A stretch of DNA of 63,260 nucleotides, filler included, from Atractiella rhizophila (taxonomy: Eukaryota), in assembly GCA_021432655.1 (NCBI GenBank). It is 5 parts of 4 records of this genome, joined end to end, with 100 filler letters (N's around TTAATTAATTAA, not from the genome) between each part and the next. Parts side by side here need not be neighbours in the genome. Positions count along the whole stretch, not along the records: positions 1 to 30,020 come from MU271714.1; 4 more parts are not named here. The stretch is one strand, 5' to 3'. Position 1 is the stretch's first letter. Every line of letters begins with the position of its first letter. Position numbers and translations under genes: made by a program. Positions 10,623-40,314 of the stretch are shown here, piece by piece. The notes under the pieces are model-generated. The model ran no database searches. It was not told the origin of the DNA and saw nothing but the letters and a program-made list of their open reading frames with translations.

Positions 10623-11034
10623 GATAAGGCTGATAGTAATATAGTACGTATGTCTCACGTTGAATCGCGTATTGGCGATTGCTCAGACTCTTCGAGACTG
10701 ACTCGAATGTGTGGCGAGAAGAAAGCTTTGATACAGACAGTTGACCAAATGTTGGGTTTGTCAGGTGTCAGGTGCGACTAGTGTCTTCAGAACTCTCACC
10801 TCAGGACACCAGGTGAGCACTTCAATACGGAGCCTTTAGCTCTCTTCCGAAAGAGTTCTACTTGGGGCTGAAATTTGTGATGGATAGGTTCCCTTGACGC
10901 TCAGAACACAAACACAATGACGACGACGATCAGATTTGAAAATGTTTTGCGTTCACTTGAATTCCTCCTATCACAAAAATTCTTTACTATCTATTCTAAC
11001 AATTTCTATCCAATTTATCCAATTATGCGTCGAA

Positions 11035-12770
11035 CTAGACCCTCTCGCGTCGTCTCCTCCAATTGTCCTTCTTGATGAAACCATCACCATCAAACCCGAT
11101 CGCTATCAAACCCAACCAACCACAGAACGCCACGGCCATGCGAACCTCTTCTACCTTGACAAACGCCCATTCCACATCGATCTTCTTGCCCTTGCATGTA
11201 ATGCGCATGAGAAGGTTCGCTTTATATCAGTCAGGTGAATGTAATCTGTCTTGTAGTACTGGGTGTACCTCAAGACTTGAGGCATGATGTATTTAAGATT
11301 ATCTGTCGTTGGGATGATCTCATCCCAAAATCCGGCTTGCGGGTTGAGATTACTATTGCTAGGCATCATCCTAGTCAATTTGTGCATATCTTTCTTCCTC
11401 AAGGATCCATATTTCTGTCTTAAAATGTCAGCTTGTGCATCAAAACGGCTAAAGATTTCTTTCTTTGATTTCCTGTAGGATTCTTCTTTTTCACCTGTGG
11501 TTTTGTTTCCCCCGATAATTCCACCACACGGAAAAGATGTATTAAATTGCTTGGGTAGAACATATTTTTATGAACGTCAAGGAAGAGGGCACCTGAACTG
11601 CCATAATTATCTTGTCCTGATCCCGCTGTAATTTCTGCCTTCGCGGACAACGTAGATACCCCCTGGAACAGCATTGCCTACTACATTGACTGTGGTATCA
11701 CCAGGGATACTTTGCCTAACTTCTGAAAAACAGTGGACCGTAGAACAGTCTACATCTCTGCCTGGTATCTTACGTTGTGTCAGTCCAACAAGTGCGTCCG
11801 AAGCAAGTGTAACCGGAGTATTGCAGTCTTTTTCGATCTGCCCCCTTCGCAGTCTTTAATATTGTTCACATCGAAAACGGAAACTCTTACGTCGGCTTCG
11901 TTTCTCCCTTCATCGAAACAGGGATGTCCAGTGCACAGTGGCACCTGCGGACTGTTGGCCTTTTTTGACCTTTTTCTTAAAAATCCGCATATGTAGATGT
12001 GGTTGAGTTCGAGTTCCTCTTGCCCTCAACGTACTTCTCAACGAACTTCCACCATTCTACCTCTTTGAATTTGACATTTTCGCACTTTAGTGATTGCTGC
12101 GCTTCTGCCTTCGTCCCTCTTGGATGAGTAAGATTTTATGGTCGAATCATCCTCAGCTCCAGCGATTGGCGTGAGTCCGGTCGAAAGCGTTTCGAGGATA
12201 GTTTGAGTTATTGTCGGAGGGGGTGTAAATCAATACCGTGGGACGTCGGTTAGTTTGGTGAATCGTGGGAAGACCACACAAAGTTGCCTTCAGTTGTGGT
12301 GGTGGATGTGGTCGACATCTTCGATGAGTAAAGCAGCTTTGGATGGGGTATGGATGTCTTGCAAAGCAACCCGTCGTTTACAATATTGCTGCATGTCCTT
12401 CGGGCCTGTTGTCATTCTTCACGCTACCTTGTCTCAGGCTGCCCTGCTCGCATGTTGCCCTTGTCCGCTTCACAACCTTTCGATTTACCCCCTTTATTTT
12501 TTCAGCTTCCTTTCACCTGAACTGCCAGTCCACAAGGCATGGCGTCGTTATCTCGACAACAAGCGCCTCCAACAAACTTTCCTCTTTCTTTCCTTGTGGA
12601 GACCTTATATCTTCTTCTCGAACAAGGTCGTGAACAACCTTTCCGTATTCTAGAAATGTCACGTCTTCCATGTAGCTGGATAGCAACTAACACTTGCCTT
12701 CTTTGTTCCATAACATAACCAGACTCGGAACATAAGAACCAAAGCACTTTATGTTCGTACATCACTGAAC
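11035..12770 (-). pseudogene. PD-(D/E)xK-type nuclease-like pseudogene, unit 1
   Basis: Reconstructed across frames: ILQEIK|KYGSLRKKDM..KYIMPQVLRYTQYY..YIHLTD..VEWAFVKVEEVRMAVAFCGWLGL. Contains frameshifts. Clear DNA paralogue of 19628-21300. 5' limit approximate. Confidence 0.65.
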
Positions 12771-12850
12771 CACGAAACTTTCCATTGCATGGTCTTTGGG
12801 CAACATCGACCGCAAGGTTAATCTGTTGACAGCTGCTACAGGATCAAAGG

Positions 12851-14990
12851 ATGCAGAACCTGCGACTCGGAGCATTCCTTAGGCCTGACCCATCCGTCTT
12901 GCTTGAGCCGCTTTCTCTGCAACATGCACCGACTCTCATACTTTCCGAAAAAATTAATTATCATCCCGGATGCTTGTGGGAGGAAGTCCAAAAGGACGGC
13001 TTCAATATTCCATCTCGTTCCACTGGAAGACATTATTCTGTGACTTATATGGACGACCTTTTAGCTGAACTTGAAGCCATGAAACGCTATAATTTTGTGG
13101 CATTCAGTGAGTACAGCTGCATCAAAGAGTTACTTGGGTAAGTCCTACAGCAGACACACCATTCGTGGCGAGTTTTTACCTTGATGTAGTGGGGATTCTC
13201 ACCGCTTAAGCTGTTTCTTGGAGGATCTTCAGCGCCTCCTATCCTTCATTCACCCAGCCAATTGTTTAGCGCCGATTCACATTCGTTATCAACCAGCCAG
13301 TGACAGTATGTTCGCCTCTTTGCCTTGCAATTTTAAACCAGAAGTGGTCCGCGTCTTACATCGCGATCATTGCATGTTAACCATCGTTCTTCTGGTAAGT
13401 TGTAACTTACCTCTGACTACAGATATTGACATTTAATGCCACTCCTAGCCGCCTGGATCTCTTCGGGATGATGATTGGGTGGGATTTGAAACGACAGGAC
13501 TCGCTGAAGTGGACGACAAGGCGGTGATTCGAGGACAGTACATGCGATTCCTTTCTGTTGTCATGGCGGAAGAACCTTTAGAATCAATCGCCGTCTTCTG
13601 CGACCTGCAGTCTTCCGTGACATTTCGATTAGACTATGATATCTCCTACGCATTCCATTCGCAGGAGCCTTATCTTCCTTTCTTGACGATGCTTTATGAA
13701 CAGTTGAACAATGGCTGGCATAGCAGGCAGTATTTTCGTCGTACTGGACTGCCTCTTTTCCCGGACGTAGCTGTTTTAGGCTGTCGAAGAGATCCTTCAG
13801 CTGGATTGGAAGTTGATTTAACAGCCATATCCAAATCTTCTGATTTTGACACATTTGATGTTCAGACCGCTGACTACTCTCTACAACAAGCCATTACATT
13901 GTGGCATCAGGAGCGCTTGCAGAAAGGGATTTTATGGCTGGAGAACTTACAAATACCTGGAACAAGCATGACCGTTGTGTCTGTTCTCGAGCCAACGAAC
14001 CCCAGGTCCACTGAACCTCTGCTAATTCTAAGTACCAATGATCCGCTTGTGCTTTTCCGACAGAACGTTATGCTTCACGCCATGTCGAAGCAGCGATCTT
14101 CCCTGCCGGCCCTTGATCTCAAAACCGGCGAATCTATACAGCTTCTTCGTTCTCTCAGGTCCGGCCAACAACTGTGGGGACAAGTTTACGAAGTTACGAT
14201 CCCTGAAAGAGACCTCAACGGCACCCGTCTTGTCCTGAAGATTTATGAAGAACGTTTGTATCCCTTTCCAGCCTGGAACGGAGCAGGGGAGGAAGCTTGG
14301 AAACGCATTCGCCGTTGGCCAGACGCAAACGATTGCTTGACGCGGGAGCAATCTGCATATTCTTGGTTACACCTACTCCAAGGGTCAGCTATACCGAGGT
14401 CTTATGGTTTCTACGAGGTGAGCTTGGTGGGTCGCATCCCGTCGAAAATGAGAGAGAGAGACTAGGTACGGCTGCCGGATGGAAAGGTGGCACCAGCACA
14501 CCTGCTCGAGTTTGTCGAAGGTCCTCATATCGACGAGGTAGATCTGAAATCACTTTCAGCTGAAGATCAACAGGCATTCGTCAGGATTTCCTCATCTACA
14601 TCCTCCTCATTGGCTGATCTCTGTTCAAAGTACATCAACGCGATGACGATGATTGGCGCCATGGTGCTTCTTGGTGTGAATCATACCGACATTGACCAAC
14701 GTCCAGACCAAATTATCTGCCATACCAATGGATCCGGAGTGCCTAATCCCGTCCTGTTAGATTTTGGAATGGCGAACTGTGGCATTTTCATGGACGACAG
14801 CACTCTACTCTCAAAGGATACAGGATGGAACTTTCAACTGATCAAAACTCCAGATTCAATGCACATGGCGTGGACCTTAAACCAATATCTACCTTGGGAT
14901 GTAACAGAACATCCGGAAGTGGTTTCAACTTACGCCTGGAAGTGGATGAAGACGGCAAAATTTGGACCTTTCGACGTGAAGTGGGAATGA
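12851..14990 (+). CDS. Protein kinase-like protein with N-terminal restriction-endonuclease-like domain, copy 1
   Basis: Exons 12851-13137, 13190-13394, 13449-14417, 14466-14579 and 14631-14990 join in frame. Motifs GQQLWGQVY, VLKIYE, REQSAY, LLEFVEG, HTDI and LLDFG. Confidence 0.85.
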
Positions 14991-15069
14991 CTGTTAGGAT
15001 GGATGTCGGACCATTACATTTTAGATTACAAGTAGACAGCACATCAATGCATTTCGTTACGAATCCCAG

Positions 15070-15200
15070 ACACCCCAGTTGCTACAGTTTCATCTCCCTC
15101 TGCCTTACCATAGTCTCAATAAGCAGCAATGGTGGTCTCGGAAGTCTGGTTGCCAGGAACCTTGTGTGGTCGACGCCTTCCGAGATTCCTGACTTCCAAG
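15070..15200 (-). pseudogene. Relic of the 3' end of the RING/TRAF gene
   Basis: ctacagtttcatctccctctgccttaccatagtctcaata..ggaagtctggttgccaggaacctt matches 23628-23730. Confidence 0.6.
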
Positions 15201-16020
15201 CACGCTGATCCAGTTTTAGATCGTTCTGATTGGAAGTGTGTTCGAAGATGTGAGTTGAGGTCTACATGAAATTCGAAAGCATTTATTCTTTTACCGACAC
15301 TCTGGGCACTCAGGTGTCCAAACTGTTCCACGGTTGTTAGGCTCACGCGTTGAGGTTTGGCTTGCGAGGGTTCTGCGAGCCAACGAGAGCTTGTGAGCTT
15401 TGAAAGGAACTCAAACGAGGTGGTAAGTAGAAGCAATGCTCACCCGCCACCTCTAGGGGTTTGGGTAGGAGACAGCCTGAGCTCTGCAGTGGAGGGAGGG
15501 TCGGGCAAAGAGACGATGCAATCAAAGAGAGTTGAAAGGAGAGCTTTGGAGAGCGGTTGGTCGATGAGTTTGGTGATCTCTGTGCGTTTGGACTTGGACC
15601 TGGATCCTTTCCAATGTGTGGTGAGAAGCTGGCTGAAGCTCAAGCTCGACACTAGCTGTTCTGAACTTTGAACCGCATCTCGAAGGAGAGGAACTGGTGA
15701 GTTGGGTTAGTCAAAAGGATATAAACTGTACTCCAGGTGAGCCCTTTCAAGTTGACCCAGTTATTTTGAGCTACTATTATTTCACTCTGCCGTTCATCAA
15801 CTTGCGAAAGCAATCATTTGTTTGTTTTTGAATTCAGATTGGGGCAGAAATGTGTGTACTTTGTTCTGGGTGTCCTCATTCTACCTGTGAGCATGAACAA
15901 GATCTGCTATCAGAGTTTGGTGGTTTGGGTGTTTAAACCTTTCAATTTCTCCGGACAATTTTTCTAACCTATCCAGTTTTTCCAATTCTACACAATTCAT
16001 TCATAGAGCCTTGTGCGTCC

Positions 16021-16150
16021 TTATCTTAAACTCCCCGCCTCCACGAAGCCATCGCCATCAAACCCGATTGTTATCAAGCTCAACCAGTCGCAGAATGCCG
16101 GGGCCATGGCAACCTCTTCTAACTTGACAAACGCCCATTTCCACGTAAAG
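16021..16150 (-). pseudogene. C-terminal remnant of the nuclease-like gene, unit 2
   Basis: Encodes WAFVKLEEVAMAPAFCDWLSLITIGFDGDGFVEAGSLR*. The rest of the gene is deleted, so the remnant ends about 35 nt before the kinase copy 2 ATG. Confidence 0.7.
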
Positions 16151-16184
16151 ATTTATCTATTGACGGCTGCTGTAGGATTGGAGA

Positions 16185-18295
16185 ATGGAGAACGTTCGTC
16201 TTAGAGCTTTCCTTCGGCCAGATTCCTCCGTCCTGCTTGAGTCGCCTCCTCAACACGCCTCGAGTTTCTCACAACAAATTGATTACCACCCCAAATGCTT
16301 GTGGAAGGAAGTCCAAAAGGATGATTTCAATATTCCGTCTCGGAGGACTGGAAGATTCTTTTCGGTGACGTATATGGACGACCTTAGGGCTGAACTAGAA
16401 GCCCTAAAACGCTATAATTTTGTGCCATTTGATGACCACAACATGGCCAGAGGGCTGCTTACGTAAGTCTAATAACTGGTGTGGCGAATTTTGATCCCGG
16501 CGTAGTGGTGATTCGCATCGTTCAAGCTGCTTCCTGGAGGATCTCCAGCGCCTTCTGTCCTACATTCATCCGGCTAATTGTCTAGCAACAGTTCAGATTC
16601 AGCGTCAATCACTAACTAGCATTGATACGCTCGCCTCCTTGCCTTACAACTTGAAACCAGAAGTTGTCCGGGTTAGACATTATGACCATTGCATTATGAC
16701 GATTGTCCTTTTGGTGAATTGTCATTTGCCCTAACTACAGACATCTAATGAATCTTCTAGTCACCCGGATCTCTTCGGGATGAGGATTGGTCAGGATTTG
16801 AAAAGACAGCATTCGCTGAAGTGGACGACAAGGCAGTGATTCGGGGGCATTTCATGCGACTTCTTTCGTTTCTGATGGCTGAAGATCCGCTGAAATCCAT
16901 CGCTGTCTTCTGTGACATGCAGTCTTCTGTGACCTTTCGGTTGGCTTACCGGGTTCTCTATGCTTTTCATTCGCAGGAGCCATATCTTCCTTTATTGACC
17001 CTGCTTTACGAGCAATTTGATATCGGCTCGCGTTGCAGGCAGTACTCCCGCCGTACTGGGTTGCCTCTTTTCCCAGACGTAGCGGTTTCAGGATGTCGAA
17101 GAGATCCATCAGCTGGATTGCATATTGATTTAACAAACATATCCAAATTCTCCGAGTTTGACCCATTTGACGTTCAGACAGCTGGCTATGCTTTCCAACA
17201 AGGGATTCTATCGTGGCATCAGGTGCGCTTGCAGACAGGGCAATCATGGCTTGATAATTTGCTACTGCCGGGAGAGAAACTACCTGTTGTCTCTGTTCTC
17301 AAGGCAACGGAGTCCATGTCCACTGAACCAATGCTGATTCTCAGTACCACTGATCCTCTTGTGCTCTTTCGACAGAATGTCATGCTTCATGCCATGTCGA
17401 AGCAACGATCTTCCTTACCTGCCCTTGAGCTCAAAGTTGGCGAATCTATACAGCTTCTTCGTTCGCTCAGGTCTGGGTCACAACTATGGGGTCAGGTCTA
17501 TGAAGTTACGATCCTCGAAAGGAACCTCAGCGGTACACGTCTTGTTCTGAAAGTTTATGAAGAACGCTTGTACCCCTACCCAGCATGGGAGGCACCCGAT
17601 GAGGAAGCTTGGAAACGAATTCGGCGCTGGCCGAACGCAATGGATTCCTTCACACGGGAACAATCCGCTTATTCTTGGTTACACCTACTCCAAGGGTCAG
17701 CTATACCGAGGTCTTATGGTTTCTACGAGGTGAGCTTGGTGGGTCCCATCCTATCGATACTGAAGAGAGACTAGGTACGGCTGGCTGATGGAACGGTGGC
17801 ACCGGCACACCTGCTCGAGTTCGTAGAAGGTCCCCATATCGACGGGGTAGATCTGAAATCACTTTCAGCTGAAGATCAACAGGAATTTGTGAGCATTTCC
17901 TCATCTATCCCCTTCCCATTTGCTGATTTTGGTAGTACATCAACGCAATGACGTTGATTGGCGCAGTGCTACTTCTGGGTGTGAATCATACTGACATTGA
18001 CCGTCGTCCAGACCAAATTATCTGCCATACCAATGGATCCGGAGTGCCTAGCCCCGTCCTGTTGGATTTTGGAATGTCGAACTGTGGCATTTTCATGGAC
18101 GACAGCACTCTACTTTCAAAAGATACAGGATGGGACTTTCAACTGATGTCCACTCCAGATTCAATGCATATGTCGTGGACTTTGGAGGAGTATCTACCTT
18201 GGGATATAGCAGAGCATCCAGAAGTGATTTCGACCTATGCCTGGAAGTGGATGAAGACGGCCAAATTTGGACCTTTCGACGTGAAGTGGGAATGA
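16185..18295 (+). CDS. Protein kinase-like protein, copy 2
   Basis: Same 5-exon structure as copy 1 and splices in frame. Motifs VLKVYE, HTDI and LLDFG. Same C-terminus KFGPFDVKWE. Confidence 0.85.
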
Positions 18296-18399
18296 CGCTT
18301 CGTTTTAGGTTAAATGTCTGGTCATTACATTTAAACTACAAGTAGGCAGTAAGTACCACAACACCACAGCGCATTTTGTTACGCACCTTCAGTTGGTAC

Positions 18400-18780
18400 A
18401 ATGTCATTTTCCACCTGCTCCCAGCACCGTTAGTCCCAATACCCCAATTGGCCATGGGAACGACCTTTGACGGCGCAGGAGGAGAGGCCGATTGTCATGG
18501 TCGCTCCTTTTTTCTTGTGCATTCCAAGGTGGATTCCAAGGTGGAATAGACCCAGGCTGCGAAGGCGACAAGGACCAAATTGTACCCTTCTTGCATCTCA
18601 TCCCCTTCGAGCTTCGTTTGCGCATAGTCACACCGTTGTCTTCCTGTCTCCTTAACGGCCTCGTCAGAATCTAACCACCAACCCTCTCAATGCAACTTCC
18701 TGTCCCCTCTCACCCGCTGATGGGACACTCATCCTTCAAGACTTCCTCAAGCGTCATGGCCTCAGGCCCGTAAATTACAT
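18400..18780 (-). pseudogene. Degraded relic of the RING/TRAF gene
   Basis: tagtcccaataccccaa matches about 23660. ttgcatctcatccccttcgagcttcgtt..cacaccgttgtcttcc..gacactcatc matches 24320-24470. Confidence 0.65.
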
Positions 18781-18839
18781 TGAAACACGCCGGGAAATTG
18801 GGTAATCGAGTTTCCCTGACGGAGCAATAGAGGCAAAAG

Positions 18840-19360
18840 TGGATGTGAGGCAGGTAGCAACCTGCTGGCTGTAGAGAATGTACTCTGCTTCGGCCGTTGA
18901 ACTTTTCAATCGTATTAAACCATTTTATATATGATCATCGCGGGTGGATCAAGCGGGGCGATGGGCTCCGAGCCAGCTGAGCCGAGATAAGTCTCTCAAC
19001 AGACAAAACAGTGACGAACCGTCCAAGCATGTCACAAAGTACATGATGAAGTTGGGCAGTAAGCATCAATGCATGTACGTATCTGAAGCGCAAGTCAGGG
19101 AGAGGTAGAGCAGTACTCACGTAACGGCATCATCTGCTCTTGCAATCTGATATGTACCGACTCCACTTTGGCTATCATGCACAATATCCTACCTAAGAAC
19201 TTGAGAGCTGCGTCAGTGGCTAAACTTGAAATGGTGAGGGAAGTGCCAAAAGGTAGGACGTAAAGCTGACGAGAGGTCAAACACGAGGGCATGTGAGGAG
19301 GATTCATAATTTCTTTTAGCTGGCGCATGATGACAAAATGACTTTGAGGTGTGGCGAGAA
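18840..19360 (-). pseudogene. Degraded relic of the ATG7 5' region
   Basis: ttgaacttttcaatcgtatt matches about 10103, actcacgta..tctgctcttgcaatc about 10378, ctatcatgcacaa about 10459 and gtgtggcgagaag about 10709. The blocks are colinear. Confidence 0.65.
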
Positions 19361-19627
19361 GCAACGGACGGAGAAAGAGTAAACTTCACTTCTCCAGACC
19401 AGACCAGACGGGGGCTTCAGTAATTACTGATAGATACTTCTTTCAAGGTGAGCCCTGAGCACTTCAATATCCGCTTTGTCTTTCGCTGCAATTCAGAAGG
19501 GAAAAATTCTTTTGAGTTCGGCTTGCGCGACATCATTTCTGCCTTCTTGTGGCCCTTTACAAGTTTATAAGCTCTTGAAACATTGTCTAAGATTTCACTT
19601 CACCCTATTCACTTCCTCCCATTACTC

Positions 19628-21300
19628 TTAATACCTGGCTTTCCCCAACTTTTCCTTCTTGACGAAGCCATTGTTGTCAAAGCCGATTGATTTCAAGCCC
19701 AACCAGCCACAGAATGCTACGGCCATTCGAACCTCTTCTACGTCAACAAACGCCCATTCTACGTAGATTTCATCATCCGTATGTATGATACGCATGAGGA
19801 GATTTGATTTGTGGTCAGTCAGGTGGATGTAACGTGCCTTGTAGTACTTTGTATACCGGAAGACTTGAGGCATGATGTATTTGAGTTTGTTTGTCAATGG
19901 AATCATCTTATCCAAGATCGAATATGTACTTTGAGATTCTCGCTAGGAGGCATCATCCGAGTTAGTTCGACAATGTCGCTCTGCGTAAACGCCCCATGTT
20001 TCTGTGTCAAACTGTCAGCAATTGCCCACAGAGTTAACGAATTATCTTTCTTTGATTTCCTGTAGCAAGAAGTTTCGTTCTTGTTTTTCCTGATTCTTTT
20101 CGTCGCCATCGAGAAGTTCTACGACGCGGAAGAGATAATCCACTCGCACTGAAGCTGTCTTGTCAGAAATCTGCGAAATGGAAGCATGTGCGTACCTGAA
20201 CTCCCGTGATTGTCTGCCCCAGATGCACCGAATGCAGCTGTAGCTTCTTTGTTCTTTTGCATCGTGGATACTTCTGAACCAGCTTTGCTCGCTGCATTGA
20301 CTGCATTATCTTTGGCAATGCTCTGTCGGACTTCTGCTTAACAGTGGACCGTAAACCGTGTTACGTGCCTACTGTTTGATCTGTGACTCTATCTGTACGT
20401 GGCCATGGCGTTCAGAGAAAGAGTAACAGGTGTGTTACAGTCTTTTATGATCTGCCCGCTTCGTATTTTAAGAATGCTTGTCCTTGAAAAGTGAACATTC
20501 TTACGCAATGTCAGCTTCATTTCTCGCTTTATCGAAACAGGGGTGGGCAGTACACAGAGGTAACTGAGGTGGCGCTGGCTTCCCACAGCCGGGGCTGGAA
20601 AATTCCTTGACGTCTTCCTCAAACTTCGTATATGTTGAATGTTCGCCCTGCTTATCCAGTGGCTCTTCCGTGAAATGCCGCCAGTTTACCTTCTTGAATT
20701 GAATTTGTTCACATTTTAGAACCTCTTTCGCCTCTCTTTTCGTCCCATTGGACGAGTAAGACCCTGATGTCGAATCGTTGGATCCTGGATGGCCAAAGAT
20801 TGGAGTGAGTTTGGTCAAAAGCGTGTCGAGGATGGTCTGAGTAAGACTGTCTGGAGGAGGTCTAAAGTAAGTACCGTGCGACGGCAGCTGATCTTGTGGA
20901 CAATACTCGGAAGACCAGACAAATGGCATCTTGGTTGGCAGGGGTGTGTGGGATATGGTACGAATGTTTCATCAAGCAAACCCATTTTTATATGTTGCCC
21001 TCATCCCTTTCTGACATGCTGCCTTTCTCCATGCTGCCGTTATCTCGTTTTAATTTGAGACACACGACACTTCTTTCGCCTTTGTCTATCTTGTTCTTGG
21101 GTATGGCACGTCACAAGTCGCCATTGTTCCAACGATACGCCTTCTTCGCGCACAAGGAAGCTCTTCGCAGGATCTTTGTGCCTTATTCTCACATACATTT
21201 ATCGTCAAGCCTTGTTAACATTCTCGAATTCTATTCTTCAACGTTTAAGCCTCAACTCTGACCGATAGACTTGTTGCCAATCTGGCTTTATGTTCTCATC
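19628..21300 (-). pseudogene. PD-(D/E)xK-type nuclease-like pseudogene, unit 3 (best preserved)
   Basis: Spliced SS|ASVRVDYLFRVVEL..NFLLQEIK|KHGAFTQSDI..KYIMPQVFRYTKYYKARYIHLTD..EWAFV..RMAVAFCGWLGL. In-frame stop at about 20338, frameshifts at about 19915 and 20505. 5' limit approximate. Confidence 0.7.
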
Positions 21301-21395
21301 GATTAGGCGATTCAAACTTTCAAATTCGTAAACTTCATCCATCTGACTTCAAACCTAGGACAAGCTGAATACTAAACGGAGTTCCGGATTGAAGA

Positions 21396-23522
21396 ATGCA
21401 GTATCTACGCCTTACAGCATTCCTCAAGGCCGATCCGTCTGTGGGATTGTTGAAATTGCCCTCACTTCAGCTTAACACCGCAATTTCATTTTCAGAAAGC
21501 GAATATCACTGCGAATGTTTGTGGAAGAGAGTCAGAAAGGATGATTTCAATGTCCCTTCTCGCGACACTGGAAGATTTTTTAGCGTGACTTATATGGATG
21601 ACCTCCGAGGCGAACTGGAAACGCTGCGTCACCACGCGTTTGCGCCGTTTAACAAGGACATCAAGGTCACAGGTTTACTTGCGTAGGTTTGCCACTGGTG
21701 CGTCAATCGTAACGAGTTTGATTTGGATGTAGCAGCGATTCACATCACTTAAGATCTTTTATACAAGACCTCCAGGGACTTCTCCCATACCTTCACCCAG
21801 CGAGTTGTCTGGTACCTGTTCACATCCAATGTGAATCACCTTGTGACCGTACTCTTGATTTCATGCCTTGGAGTTTCGAAGCGGAAGTTGTACGCATTTT
21901 ACATGGTGACCATTGCATGATGACGATTGTGGTTATTGTACGTTGTGATCTACCTGTGGCCACGGAGCTGATCCATAACCATCCTAGCCACCGGGATCCC
22001 TTTGTGAGAAGGATTGGTCGGGATTTGAAAAGGCAGAATATGATGCGATCACCAGCACCACGTCGATTTCAGGGAAATACATGCGACAACTTTCACTTTT
22101 CATGAAAGAAGAGCCTTTGGGATCGATCGCTGTTTTCTGCGACCTGCAATCCTCCGTAACCTTCCGATTGGGTTACTCCATTTACTATGCTTTTCATTCG
22201 CAGGAGCCTTATCTTCCTTTCTTGACGATGCTTTATGAACAGTTTAACAATGGCTTGCAGAGCAGGCAGTATTTTCGTCGTACTGGACTGCCTCTTTTCC
22301 CGGACGTAGCTGTTTTAGGATGCCGAAGAGATCCTTCAGCTGGATTGCAAGTTGAATTAACGACTGTCGCCAAATCTTCTGATTTTGACACATATGACGT
22401 TCAGACCGCCGACTATACTTTACAACAAGCCATTATATTGTGGCATCGGGAGCGCTTGCAGAAAGGGGCGTTATGGCTGGAGAGTCTGCAAGTACCTGGA
22501 GCAAGCATGACCGTTGTGTCTGTTCTCGAACCAACGAACCCCAGGTCCACTGAACCTCTGCTGATTCTCAGTACCTCTGATCCTCTTGTGCTTTTCCGAC
22601 AGAATGTCATGCTTCACGCCATGTCGAAACAACGATCTTCTTTGCCGGTCCTTGCTCTCAAAACCGGCGAATCTATACAGCTTCTTCGTTCTCTCAGGTC
22701 CGGCCAACAACTGTGGGGACAGGTTTACGAAGTTACGATCCCTGAAAGAGACCTCAACGGTACCCGTCTTGTCCTGAAGATTTATGAAGAACGTTTGTAT
22801 CCCTTTCCAGCCTGGAATGGAGCGGGGGAGGAAGCTTGGAAACGCATTCGCCGTTGGCCAGACGCAAATGATTGCTTGATGCGGGAGCAATCTGCATATT
22901 CTTGGTTACACCTACTCCAAGGGTCAGCTATACCGAGGTCTTATGGTTTCTACGAGGTGAGCTTGGTGGGTCCCATCCTATCGATACTGAAGAGAGACTA
23001 GGTACGGCTGCCGGATGGAACGGTGGCACCAGCACACCTGCTCGAGTTCGTAGAAGGTCCCCATATCGACGAAGTAGATCTGAAGTCACTTTCAGCTGCA
23101 GATCAACAGGAATTTGTGAGCATTTCCTCATCTATCCCTTTCCCATTCGCTGATTTTGGTAGTACATCAACGCAATGACGATGATTGGCGCCATGTTACT
23201 TCTAGGTGTGAATCACACTGACATTCAGCAACGTGCAGACCAAATTATTTGCCATATTAATGGGTCCGGAGTGCCTAACCCCGTTCTGCTAGACTTCGGA
23301 ATGTCTAATTGTGACATATTCATGGACGACAGTACTTTACTATCAAAAGAGACGGGATGGAACTTCCAATTGATAGGGACTCCAGATTCGATGCACATGG
23401 CGTGGACTTTAAACCAATATCTACCTTGGGATATAACAGAACATCCGGAAGTGGTTTCAACGTATGCCTGGAAGTGGATGAAGACAGCAAAATTTGGACC
23501 TTTCGACGTGAAGTGGGAATGA
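21396..23522 (+). CDS. Protein kinase-like protein, copy 3
   Basis: Same 5-exon structure and splices in frame (exon 2 from 21733, exon 3 from 21988). Kinase motifs conserved, N-terminus more diverged. Confidence 0.85.
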
Positions 23523-23627
23523 AAGTTTCATTTTGGATTCGATGTCTGGTCATTACATTTAAACTACAAATAGACAGTACAAATACACAACAATGCATTT
23601 CGTTTCGCATCTCAGACCCCTCAGTTA

Positions 23628-37058: not shown

Positions 37059-38458
37059 CTACCACTTTAATTTTCCCTGTTGTGCGTGAGAAGAGTTCTT
37101 CTCCGCTTCCCATCTCTCTCTCGCTTTCGCTTCACCATACTTCCAGCCCGCTTCCTCCAACTCTGAAACGTGACCTTCAAAAATCCACCAACCAGCCAGA
37201 GGTCGCACTGTATCAGTCGTTGCCTTCGTTCCCACCAATCCGGAAACCATGGTTGTCTTGAATTCCTTTCCATTGTCTACCAATCTAACGGGTACTGTGG
37301 CGAAGGACTTTGTCACCGAAGTTTGCTCCATGGCGGGGTAGAGAATGCCGTCAAGTTCGAGAACAATTTTCTGCTCCTCACCATGGTACCGGTAGTAATA
37401 AAATTCGGGATCACCGCTCTTGACTTTAGACGAGTCAAACTGTCGTTTGCCATCTTTACCCCAAAATGAGAAAGCAGTAATCCAACCTGACGTGGATATT
37501 AGTTTGCTTGCAAAGAAAGGACAAGATGCGTACCAGAGTACTCCGGCTCACCGCTTCCTAATGGGCTGGCGGAATAGATTCTGTTCCAGAAATCCTTATT
37601 CTCTTCTCCTTCTGGATCGTCAAATGCGCCAACGAAACGTCTGAGAATGGGCCGCAGGGATTTGGCGAATTGAAATGGTTCCTCCCCAAACTCATCGAAT
37701 CTGTCCAGTTTAGACAGAAGCATTTCCCAGTCCTCCTTCTTCCCTTCCAACGTGACTTCCGGCAATCCACACCTTGTCATAAAACAAGAAATAAAGTAAG
37801 ACTGTAGCGTAGACATCATAAGCACCGCTGCGACGACTTTGTCATTTTCGGTCGTGGTAGAGAACGAAGGGAGGATCCATGACTTCAAGGTGGGGTCAAC
37901 GATATTATTCTCCATCAGCGAAGTCATCCTTTGCGCCATTAACCCAAAGTCAACAGTATAGCGCGTGGTGTTTTCTTCCACCACCACCAATTCTTTCTGG
38001 CCTTTGTGGGAGACAAAGTAACTCCGAAGATTCTCGGAGTTGGCATTGATGAAGAGATTGAACTGGGATAGAATCGTGAGCCTGCACACGTTGAGATTCT
38101 TCTTACTTCACGACTTCGTAGGGAATGAAGGGGACATACCAAACGTCGTCCGGCCGGATCACAACCTTGTGGTGGTGATTGTACGCCAGGACAAGCGTAT
38201 CCTATCATGGCTTCAGGATTACCAGACGCGAGAAAAGATGAGAATACTTACCACGAATCCATTGGCTTGTGGTAGGATTGTCCCCTCTCTGTACTCAGAC
38301 GGTGGAACGGAGCTTTGAAAGATCTCTGGAACCACAACCTGACCGGCATACGGGAGCTCTCTAAACTGGGTCTGTTGAAGGTGCTCGAGCGGATTGGAAA
38401 CCGGGTGTCCCTTTACAGACTCAACTGGTTTAGAACAAGGGTGGAAAGTGACGGGCAT
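37059..38458 (-). CDS. DUF4419 family protein, copy 1
   Basis: NGFV..AYNHHHKVVIRPDDVW..ILSQFNLFINANSE..WILPSFSTTT..CGLPEVTLEG..GWITAF..RPLAGWWIF. Confidence 0.85.
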
Positions 38459-39003: not shown

Positions 39004-40314
39004 TCAAGCATCCTTCCTCATCGCCACTTCTTTCCAATTTGAAACGTCACCTTCAAAAATCCACCAGCCGGCTAGAGGTCGTACAGCGTCCCTCGTTGCT
39101 CTTGTTCCCACCAAACCGGAAACCATGGTTGCGTTGAATTCCGCTCCATTGTCGATCAATCTAACAGGCACACTAGCGAAAGACCTGGTGACTGACTCTT
39201 CGAGCATGGTGGGGTAGCAGATGCCATCTAGTTCCAGGACATTTTGTTGGCCAACACCGACGGGAAAGAAGTCATCATATTTAGGGGGACCTCTCTTGAC
39301 TTTTGAAGAGTCAAACTGTCGTTTGCCATCCTTATCCCAAAAAGAAAAAGCCGTAATCCACCCTGATGTTCACGTTAGCTTGCTGGCGAAAAAAGGTGAA
39401 AATGCCTACCAGAATACTCGGGGTCGCCGCTTCCCAATAGGCTGGAAGAATAGATTCTGTTCCAAAAATCCTTATTCTCTTCTCCTTCGGGATCTTCAAA
39501 AGCGCTGACAAAGCGTCTGAGGATTGGTCTCAAGCATTTAGCAAATTGGATCGGTTCTTCCCCAAACTCATCGAATCTGTCCAGTTTGTCGAGAAGCATC
39601 TCCCAATCCTCCTTCTTTCCTTCTAACGTGACCTCTGGCAGTCCACAAAATGTCATAAAATCATAAGCGAAATAAGACTGCAGGGTCGACATCATGAGCA
39701 CGGCAGAGACAACGGTGTCGTTGTCGGTGGTGGTGGAGAAGGAAGGGAGAATCCAAGCCTTCAGGGTAGGGTCGACGATGCTGGCCTCGATCTGGGAAGT
39801 CATCCTTTGCGCCATTACCCCAAAGTCGACGGTGTAGCGAGTGCCATCTTCTAAAACCACCAATTGTTTCTTGCCTTTGTGAGAGACAAAGTAACTCCGA
39901 AGAGTATCAGAGTTAGCATTGACGAAGAGATTGAACTGAGATAAAATCGTGATCCTGTATAGGTAAGTCCATGTAAATATCATTCGAGATTAATAGGGCA
40001 AACCAAACGTCGTCCGGCCGGATCACTACCTTGTGATGGTAGTTGTATGCTAGGACAAGCGTATCCTACCATGATTGAGCATCATCAGACACGAGGAGGA
40101 TACTGATTACCACAAATCCGTTGCTCTGAGGTAGTATTGCTCCGTCTCTATAATCAGTAGGCGAGACGGAGCACTGAAAGATCTCTGGGACTATCTGATC
40201 TGCATTGTCAATGTCTCCGAACTGTGTCTGCTGCAAATGCTGCAGTGGGTTGGAGACAGAATCAGCATTAACAGGTTCGGCTAGTTTAGAACAAGGGTGG
40301 AAGGTGACAGGCAT
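39004..40314 (-). CDS. DUF4419 family protein, copy 2 (tandem paralogue)
   Basis: Same exon structure and motifs as copy 1. Confidence 0.85.

Follow-up and report, generated by a model that had tools for sequence, protein, structure and literature searches.

Does the N-terminal domain of a family of kinase-like proteins in the basidiomycete Atractiella rhizophila descend from a nuclease, and does it act upon the nuclease-like gene that lies beside each kinase gene? The question arises from an array of three kinase-like genes (K1, K2 and K3), each accompanied by a copy or remnant of a second gene (N) on the opposite strand, in a stretch of 63,260 nucleotides (nt; filler included) from assembly GCA_021432655.1, which is referred to here as the window and whose coordinates are used throughout. 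An earlier note on this DNA had singled out positions 13190–13720, which take in the second exon and second intron of K1 and the beginning of its third exon, and had proposed that the kinase carries an inactivated copy of the fold of its partner nuclease, with an intron position in common, that could heterodimerise with or sense that nuclease. Our best explanation is a tentative one, held with a confidence just short of calling it probable: K would have a Spok-type nuclease-plus-kinase architecture in which the nuclease is dead, and N would be a decayed stand-alone paralogue. The closest precedent, missed by the earlier note, is SPOK, in which nuclease and kinase occur in one chain. Because SPOK chains carry both parts, a dead nuclease in front of a kinase is most simply read as an inactivated Spok-type architecture and not as a new decoy.

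The K genes are intact and expressed

K1 (12851–14990, plus strand) encodes 644 amino acids (aa) in five exons (12851–13137, 13190–13394, 13449–14417, 14466–14579 and 14631–14990, all on the plus strand), and its spliced model is open throughout. All four K1 introns, of 52, 54, 48 and 51 nt, have GT..AG borders, and the second (13395–13448, plus strand; GTAAGT..CCTAG, 54 nt) is inserted in phase 0, two codons before the glycine of PPGSL. K2 (16185–18295, plus strand; 642 aa) and K3 (21396–23522, plus strand; about 644 aa) have four introns as in K1, and DNA identity between the three copies is 78–81%.

RNA evidence came from one public run, X1, which is of unknown kind and behaves as RNA, and was compared over positions 10900–23600. 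Contigs of this run skip introns at GT..AG borders, which shows that the K genes are transcribed and that their splicing follows the gene models, with the exception of the acceptor of K3 intron 1, which lies 3 nt later in the RNA. Contig joints confirmed 6 of the 12 K introns (intron 1 of K1, introns 1 and 2 of K2, and introns 1, 2 and 4 of K3), and loose contig ends fit two more, introns 2 and 3 of K1 (the end at intron 2 being at 13391). RNA joints confirm the phase-0 intron that separates IVLL from PPGSL in both K2 (16714–16760) and K3 (21938–21987). K1, K2 and K3 are three intact, expressed paralogues of a two-domain protein. In the collections searched, this family was found only in A. 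rhizophila; word-based protein searches returned two K relatives (P0001 and P0002) and one N relative (P0003). Of the 249 pattern stretches matched when metagenomes were scanned with the K alignment, none was confirmed.

Two observations concern the transcripts upstream of K2 and K3. The K2 transcript contig (15735–16462) reaches upstream from the K2 start codon by at least 450 nt and includes, in antisense, the N remnant at 16021–16152; the promoter region common with N is deleted in the K2 unit. Another contig joins 19445 to 21357 with GT..AG borders, omitting the whole of N2, a short distance before the K3 start codon. This joint, the shorter side of which is only 27 letters, could be a 1.9-kilobase (kb) intron in the 5' untranslated region of K3 or could come from a contig of a paralogous locus that lacks N2.

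The two halves of the K protein

Judged by its motifs, the C-terminal half of K is a eukaryotic-like kinase that retains all catalytic motifs. The domain of K1 (14142–14990, plus strand) contains LVLKIY (at 425), REQSAY (463), HLLEFVEG (499), NHTDI (542), RPDQII (549) and LDFGM (568), and the corresponding family motifs LVLK[IV]Y, RE[QE][SR]AY, HLLE[FY]VEG, NHTD[IL], R[PA]DQII and [LI]DFGM are present in all five family members (K1–K3, P0001 and P0002). The catalytic Asp (D667 in SPOK, D545 in K1) and DFG that mark a SPOK-type kinase were likewise found in 5/5 by motif inspection. The kinase segment was matched by the PADLOC model PD-T4-6 (E-values of 7.8e-4 for P0002 and 7.8e-3 for P0001), and other weak kinase matches of P0001 and P0002 were to ABC1 (E 0.3), the Bud32 part of PRK09605 (0.22) and DAPK1 (0.8); all of the weak matches were concordant, falling on one common segment of the two proteins. 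Pfam gave no match above threshold for the kinase part and the PDB profile search returned nothing.

Ahead of this kinase, K1 has a putative dead PD-(D/E)XK-like domain (13190–13857, plus strand; about residues 97–300), in which the order of elements is PEVVRVL..MLTIVLL / PPGSLRDDDW .. YMRFLSVV .. IAVFCD .. VTFRL .. ISYAF .. YLPFLTMLYEQ. Under the register of the earlier note, the ExK position is occupied by hydrophobic residues in all three genes, as it had claimed (IVL in K1 and K2, VVI in K3); the aligned strand reads IVL, IVL, VVI, IVL and ILE across the five K proteins, and Lys is found at this position in none of them. The QxxxY feature of such nucleases is absent as well, a Q being present only in K3 (QLSLF) and in none of the other four. 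Over residues 97–300, the ratio of non-synonymous to synonymous substitution rates (dN/dS) among K1–K3 was 0.12–0.33, and the N-terminal domain is therefore maintained by purifying selection.

Synonymous divergence (dS) among K1–K3 was uneven along the gene, from 0.7 to above 2 in the 5' third (exons 1 and 2) compared to 0.3–0.5 in the kinase part. This contrast suggests either that the 3' halves have undergone gene conversion or that the 5' parts are older or of mosaic origin.

The N copies of the window are pseudogenes

N1 (11038–12317, minus strand) lies head-to-head with K1 and has at least six frame breaks or stops. N2 (19631–20929, minus strand) lies head-to-head with K3 and keeps LLQEIK (ExK) and PQVFRY (QxxxY); its first exon is open for 142 codons and is followed by a 5-nt insertion at the first donor, and its defects include two in-frame stops (..ATYR*SHRS.. 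and ..VHC*AEVRQ..) and at least three frame changes. Beside K2, all that is left is a remnant of 44 C-terminal codons (16021–16152, minus strand), 33 nt from the K2 start codon. Because N1 and N2 carry frame breaks and in-frame stops and only a fragment stands at K2, all N copies of the window are pseudogenes, and no nuclease is encoded here for K to bind. The DNA identity of N1 and N2 is 68%, compared to the 78–81% between K genes. RNA cover in X1 was absent over 10900–13019, which includes N1; parts of N2 were covered by low-depth contigs.

An exhaustive HMMER search with the N alignment gave five representatives (P0003–P0007), all from A. rhizophila, among which P0005, a protein of 365 aa encoded elsewhere in A. 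rhizophila, looks intact. The motif order of N is ..C.SEV..P(G)D.., a strand ending in [EQ]-[IV]-K, xxG[SA][LFV]xxxD, PQV[LF]RY, ..LTDH.., ..V[EY]W[AS].. and ..AFxxWLxL. The succession D..ExK..QxxxY in this series is also that given for HsdR and for the nuclease domain of SPOK3 (PMC6660238). By inspection, ExK is EIK in N1, N2 and P0003 and EVK in P0005 and both copies of P0006, and P0007 lacks it; QxxxY is present as PQVLRY or PQVFRY in N1, N2, P0003 and P0005, and the P0006 model ends at PQIIN.

Some annotated N relatives appear to be products of this decay. P0004, an annotated 85-aa 'hypothetical protein', consists of two out-of-frame pieces of N1 and maps to 11093–11387 with 98–100% identity; in P0003 and P0006, too, the gene model looks as if it had been forced over broken or tandem N copies.

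A junction common to N and K

The strings on which the earlier note had built its alignment are all present (LTIVLL/PPGSLRDDDW in K1, KYMRQLSLF..IAVFCD..YAF in K3, YIMPQVFRY..YIHLTD..EWAF in N2, and ILQEIK and KYGSLRKKDM in N1). Its claim of a common phase-0 intron two codons before the Gly stood on the kinase side, where that intron is real, but on the nuclease side there is only an unproven GA..AG segment. This segment is 49 nt long in N1 (11415–11463, minus strand), where it separates ILQEIK from KYGSLRKKDM, which differ in frame, and a homologous 49-nt GA..AG segment is found in N2 (20002–20050, minus strand). Its length is within the 43–54 nt range of local introns, both copies keep the sequence GCTGAC 12 nt ahead of the AG, and removal of the 49 nt gives the needed +1 frame change in N1 and N2. 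The spacing that results is that of P0006, which reads EVK-KK-GAVLEKDF with no 16-aa insert. The annotated relative P0003 translates through this place as 16 codons, QEIKKDNSLTLWAIADRLTQKHGAF. At the 5' border, ATCAAAGAAAGA is common to N1 and N2, and the P0003 protein implies one A fewer. From these sequences, the frame-breaking state was probably ancestral to the N1, N2 and P0003 copies. The segment is intron-like and is a candidate, as yet unproven, for an ancestral intron whose donor has mutated.

Of the GSLRxxD motif that the earlier note had described as common to both families, GSLR is present in N1, K1 and K2 but is not conserved in N2, K3 or P0001–P0003 (GAFTQSD in N2 and P0003, GVLCEQD in P0001 and GTICEED in P0002). 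A degenerate form defined post hoc, G[SAVT][LIFV]xxxD[WMIF], occurs seven times in the six reading frames of the window (126,516 residues), and 5/7 of these occurrences are the sites of N1, N2, K1, K2 and K3. At each of the five, two codons separate the motif from the preceding strand with the intron or 49-nt segment that belongs to it.

Common origin or coincidence

On balance, we favour the view that N and the K N-domain have one fold, of the Spok/HsdR type, and that they arose from a common source. Leads that point this way come from the ESM Atlas (Atlas below). For P0002 residues 1–400, the top feature match was a cluster with SPOK2_N in 76% of its members (159 features shared; score of 0.86, which is below the tool's bar and makes the match a lead only), and a structure row matched residues 116–253 to a 175-aa cluster, 11% of whose members carry SPOK2_N (template modelling (TM) score by row of 0.55). 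Further structure rows for this query were HSDR_N_2, type I R subunit, MmeI and Uma2 endonuclease, with TM scores of 0.23–0.45 for the HSDR_N_2 and Uma2 rows. The structural neighbours of P0005 were clusters of stand-alone proteins with SPOK2_N, the 'Spore killer 2 N-terminal domain' (PF27653), with TM scores of 0.54–0.56 over 244 residues, together with a Crinkler+Pkinase cluster (row 2) and an HSDR_N cluster (row 10). The neighbours of P0005 and P0002 overlap in two clusters (175 aa with 64 members and 258 aa with 60 members). N looks, as a lead, like a PD-(D/E)XK nuclease of the Spok/HsdR type, and it is at this strength, through the ExK and QxxxY motifs and the SPOK2_N neighbours, that the nuclease identity given to the partner gene can be kept. 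The matching claim for the kinase, that it carries an inactivated nuclease fold, has the Atlas leads on P0002 on its side but no pairwise or profile–profile statistic.

A custom profile alignment of N with the K N-region reached a z of 2.2, which was equalled by 1 of 60 shuffles, compared to −0.5 for a kinase control. With the N-core hidden Markov model (HMM), the YIHLTD/AAFLD pairing was one of the two top segments in P0002, at a negative bit score. Low-confidence AlphaFold2 models of both domains show a helix, three strands and a helix after the strand, in the same order, which would be compatible with the alpha-beta-beta-beta-alpha-beta core of the PD-(D/E)XK superfamily.

The principal rival is coincidence, by which the K N-region is an unrelated, lineage-specific domain that stands beside N for other reasons and whose motif, hydrophobic patterns and intron position match those of N by chance. 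We consider this unlikely, while recognising that a considerable number of results weigh against common origin and in its favour. All of the sequence statistics were null. As a sequence match, the nuclease–kinase alignment of the earlier note was no better than chance, with Smith–Waterman scores of all 15 pairs within those of 300 shuffles (z of −1.1 to 2.15), and the profile–profile alignment it had called for gave hhalign probabilities of 0.16% (full profiles), 0.10% (cropped cores) and 0.04% (global mode). Searches of N against the K N-domain with phmmer and blastp gave inconsistent registers, the best being P0005 279–321 with P0002 81–125 (E 0.04–0.1), not in the register of the earlier note, and the N-core HMM scored the K proteins with negative bit scores. 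Where the custom profile did score, its best segment was LKYIMP/LKYMYP, in a register other than that of the earlier note. At the junction, GSLR itself is confined to N1, K1 and K2, and the 49-nt segment begins with GA, not GT, and is not a canonical intron; no RNA joint was seen at 20002–20050 in N2, where cover is low, and the N1 segment is uncovered.

Family and structure searches add to the same side. Neither N nor the K N-domain has a match in Pfam, NCBIfam or PADLOC, or a relevant sequence match in PDB (searched with single proteins and with profiles). PF27653 gave no match for any query in the Pfam scans, its model being apparently absent from that copy of Pfam. The Cys cluster of Spok, sought with a relaxed regular expression, was found in none of the five K proteins. 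AlphaFold2 was uninformative, with a predicted local distance difference test (pLDDT) of 36 for the K N-region (P0002 residues 1–398) and 45 for N (P0005), and Foldseek of the low-confidence N model against PDB returned nothing at E ≤ 0.001. The Atlas evidence is also at the level of leads: most structure rows for K have TM scores below 0.5, and its own models are poor, with pLDDT values of 0.46 (P0005) and 0.53 that make the neighbours of P0005 a lead and not proof.

Against coincidence, two independent Atlas queries converge on one Pfam family and two identical clusters, the degenerate motif is almost confined within the window to the five N and K sites, and the junction agrees in codon and phase between the two. 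N and K are paired three times here, and elsewhere P0003 (N-like) and P0002 (K-like) lie on contigs of equal length and have accession numbers close together. Moreover, nuclease plus kinase is precisely the combination for which Spok provides the precedent.

If common origin is accepted, the inactivated Spok-type architecture would be understood as follows. The N-terminal region of K would most likely have a Spok/HsdR-type PD-(D/E)XK fold from which the Lys of ExK and the QxxxY have been lost, and the domain order of K would be that of the SPOK spore killers (nuclease poison, then kinase antidote), frozen in an 'antidote-only' state. N would be a stand-alone gene or remnant of the same nuclease type, placed head-to-head with each K, that kept E..PD..ExK..QxxxY and is dead here. 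N and the K N-domain would probably be paralogues that arose, for instance, by a partial duplication in inverted orientation. Such paralogy would account for the strand-xxG[SA][LF]xxxD junction that they have in common, at which the intron of K and the intron-like segment of N agree in codon and phase. A poison–antidote function is suggested by analogy with Spok.

Decoy, split system and kinase-subdomain readings

The mechanism favoured by the earlier note, in which the dead nuclease domain of K binds active N, either to form a heterodimer or to sense it, and so recruits the kinase, making the two genes a poison–antidote pair, appears improbable to us. Many PD-(D/E)XK enzymes act as dimers, which is in keeping with such binding, as are the selection on a K N-domain that has no catalytic residues, the head-to-head placement of N and K, and the intact N relative P0005 elsewhere in A. 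rhizophila. However, each N beside a K in the window (N1, N2 and the 16021–16152 remnant) is a pseudogene, so that K has no cognate partner here and the proposal fails for its own neighbours; heterodimerisation would require intact N paralogues elsewhere, such as P0005. Moreover, the SPOK3 kinase works in cis and in trans, and no decoy of this kind is known for it (PMC6660238).

Similarly doubtful is a wider form of this idea, a split two-gene Spok system in a basidiomycete, with N as poison and K as antidote transcribed divergently and the dead copy of the fold recognising or pairing with the nuclease. In that case, which we rate as equally improbable, the array would record the life cycle of the element, with poisons decayed and antidotes kept against intact N of the P0005 type elsewhere.

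Finally, a reading of the common motifs as kinase subdomains (GSLxD as the hinge or subdomain V, YIxxQV as helix E, HLTDHK as the catalytic loop and EWA as DFG), which would make N a kinase-like protein and K a pseudokinase–kinase tandem, is very improbable and was dropped on the SPOK2_N and HSDR_N neighbours of P0005 in Atlas: motif order and spacing do resemble subdomains V–VII and some Atlas neighbours of P0005 have Pkinase domains, but the aligned part of those neighbours has no kinase family, ExK and QxxxY fit a nuclease, the Asn is at D+4 and not at D+5, and no kinase HMM touches N.

Genomic surroundings

The array is flanked by ordinary genes, with ATG7 at about 8.7–10.7 kb and a RING protein at 23.6–24.7 kb; further off are SIR2, a lipoxygenase, NLE, an ADP-ribosylglycohydrolase, two DUF4419 genes and a GRAM-domain gene. 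The DUF4419 genes form a tandem pair on the minus strand (37502–38107 and 39378–39989; E 1.9e-67 and 2.9e-69). No transposon signature was found among the open reading frames (ORFs) scanned.

Spliced transcripts on the minus strand were also observed between the units. One, between K1 and K2 (14962–15700), has a CT..AC joint at 15373–15443 and the top contig depth of the stretch (140–208). Others, between K2 and N2 (18142–19372), have CT..AC joints at 18142–18198, 18335–18387 and 18649–19120 and an odd CT..GG joint at 19319–19372 with 2 extra letters. The inter-unit ORFs at 14.8–15.7 kb and 18.4–19.4 kb matched no family in the Pfam scans.

Comparison with known systems

How SPOK can be both poison and antidote is presented as an open question in PMC6660238 and PMC12693581, and it is here that the locus would matter. 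If our explanation is true, K and N would provide natural separation-of-function alleles, with nuclease and kinase on separate genes and a dead nuclease-like domain kept by selection in the kinase gene, would suggest the testable idea that an antidote may recognise its target by means of a homologous fold, and would extend Spok-type elements beyond Ascomycota; the titles and abstracts of the literature searched describe no Spok-type system in Basidiomycota. If the homology is not real, the locus consists of orphan kinase genes beside pseudogenes.

Among the systems with which N and K can be compared, the wtf genes of Schizosaccharomyces pombe are alike in being a multi-copy poison–antidote family with many antidote-only copies (according to PMC12693581), but their proteins and mechanism are unrelated. 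Crinkler-type effectors that join a restriction endonuclease to a kinase are represented by the Crinkler+Pkinase cluster beside P0005 in Atlas, and the association of this nuclease class with kinases is called widespread in PMC12693581, citing Zhang et al. 2016; neither a Crinkler N-terminal domain nor a secretion signal was noticed here, though no search aimed at them was made. The HsdR N-terminal domain (HSDR_N) has D..ExK plus a QxxxY helix and is among the Atlas neighbours of both queries; however, this bacterial domain belongs to a motor subunit, its TM scores here were 0.28–0.39 and there was no sequence match. HSDR_N is also reported as the best HHpred match of SPOK3 (PMC6660238). Stand-alone SPOK2_N (PF27653) proteins of Ascomycota, which are about 340–500 aa long and kinase-less, are the nearest Atlas neighbours of P0005 and of the K N-region, compared here as Atlas cluster labels only.

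The SPOK proteins themselves (Spok1–4 of Podospora) have an ExK/QxxxY nuclease region upstream of a eukaryotic-like kinase, the nuclease being the poison and the kinase the antidote, and form multi-copy families that include pseudogenes and antidote-only forms, as described in PMC6660238 and PMC12693581. In SPOK3, a PD-(D/E)XK nuclease (motif at 219–240, QxxxY at 294–298) is followed by the kinase, according to PMC6660238, where the SPOK3 profile was built from 282 Ascomycota homologues. Unlike in SPOK, the active-looking nuclease motifs are found here in a separate, divergent gene, N, and the nuclease-like domain of K lacks them; K also has no Cys cluster (C-x3-C-x13-C-x5-H-x7-H) upstream of the kinase in any of the five proteins. 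In addition, sequence similarity to SPOK is not detectable by HMMER, and the host is a basidiomycete and not an ascomycete. The SPOK3 K240A mutant, in which the catalytic Lys of the nuclease is replaced, is reported to have lost killing and kept resistance (PMC6660238), and natural antidote-only Spok2 alleles are reported to protect without killing (PMC12693581). By analogy, these two would be the closest precedent for the state of K.

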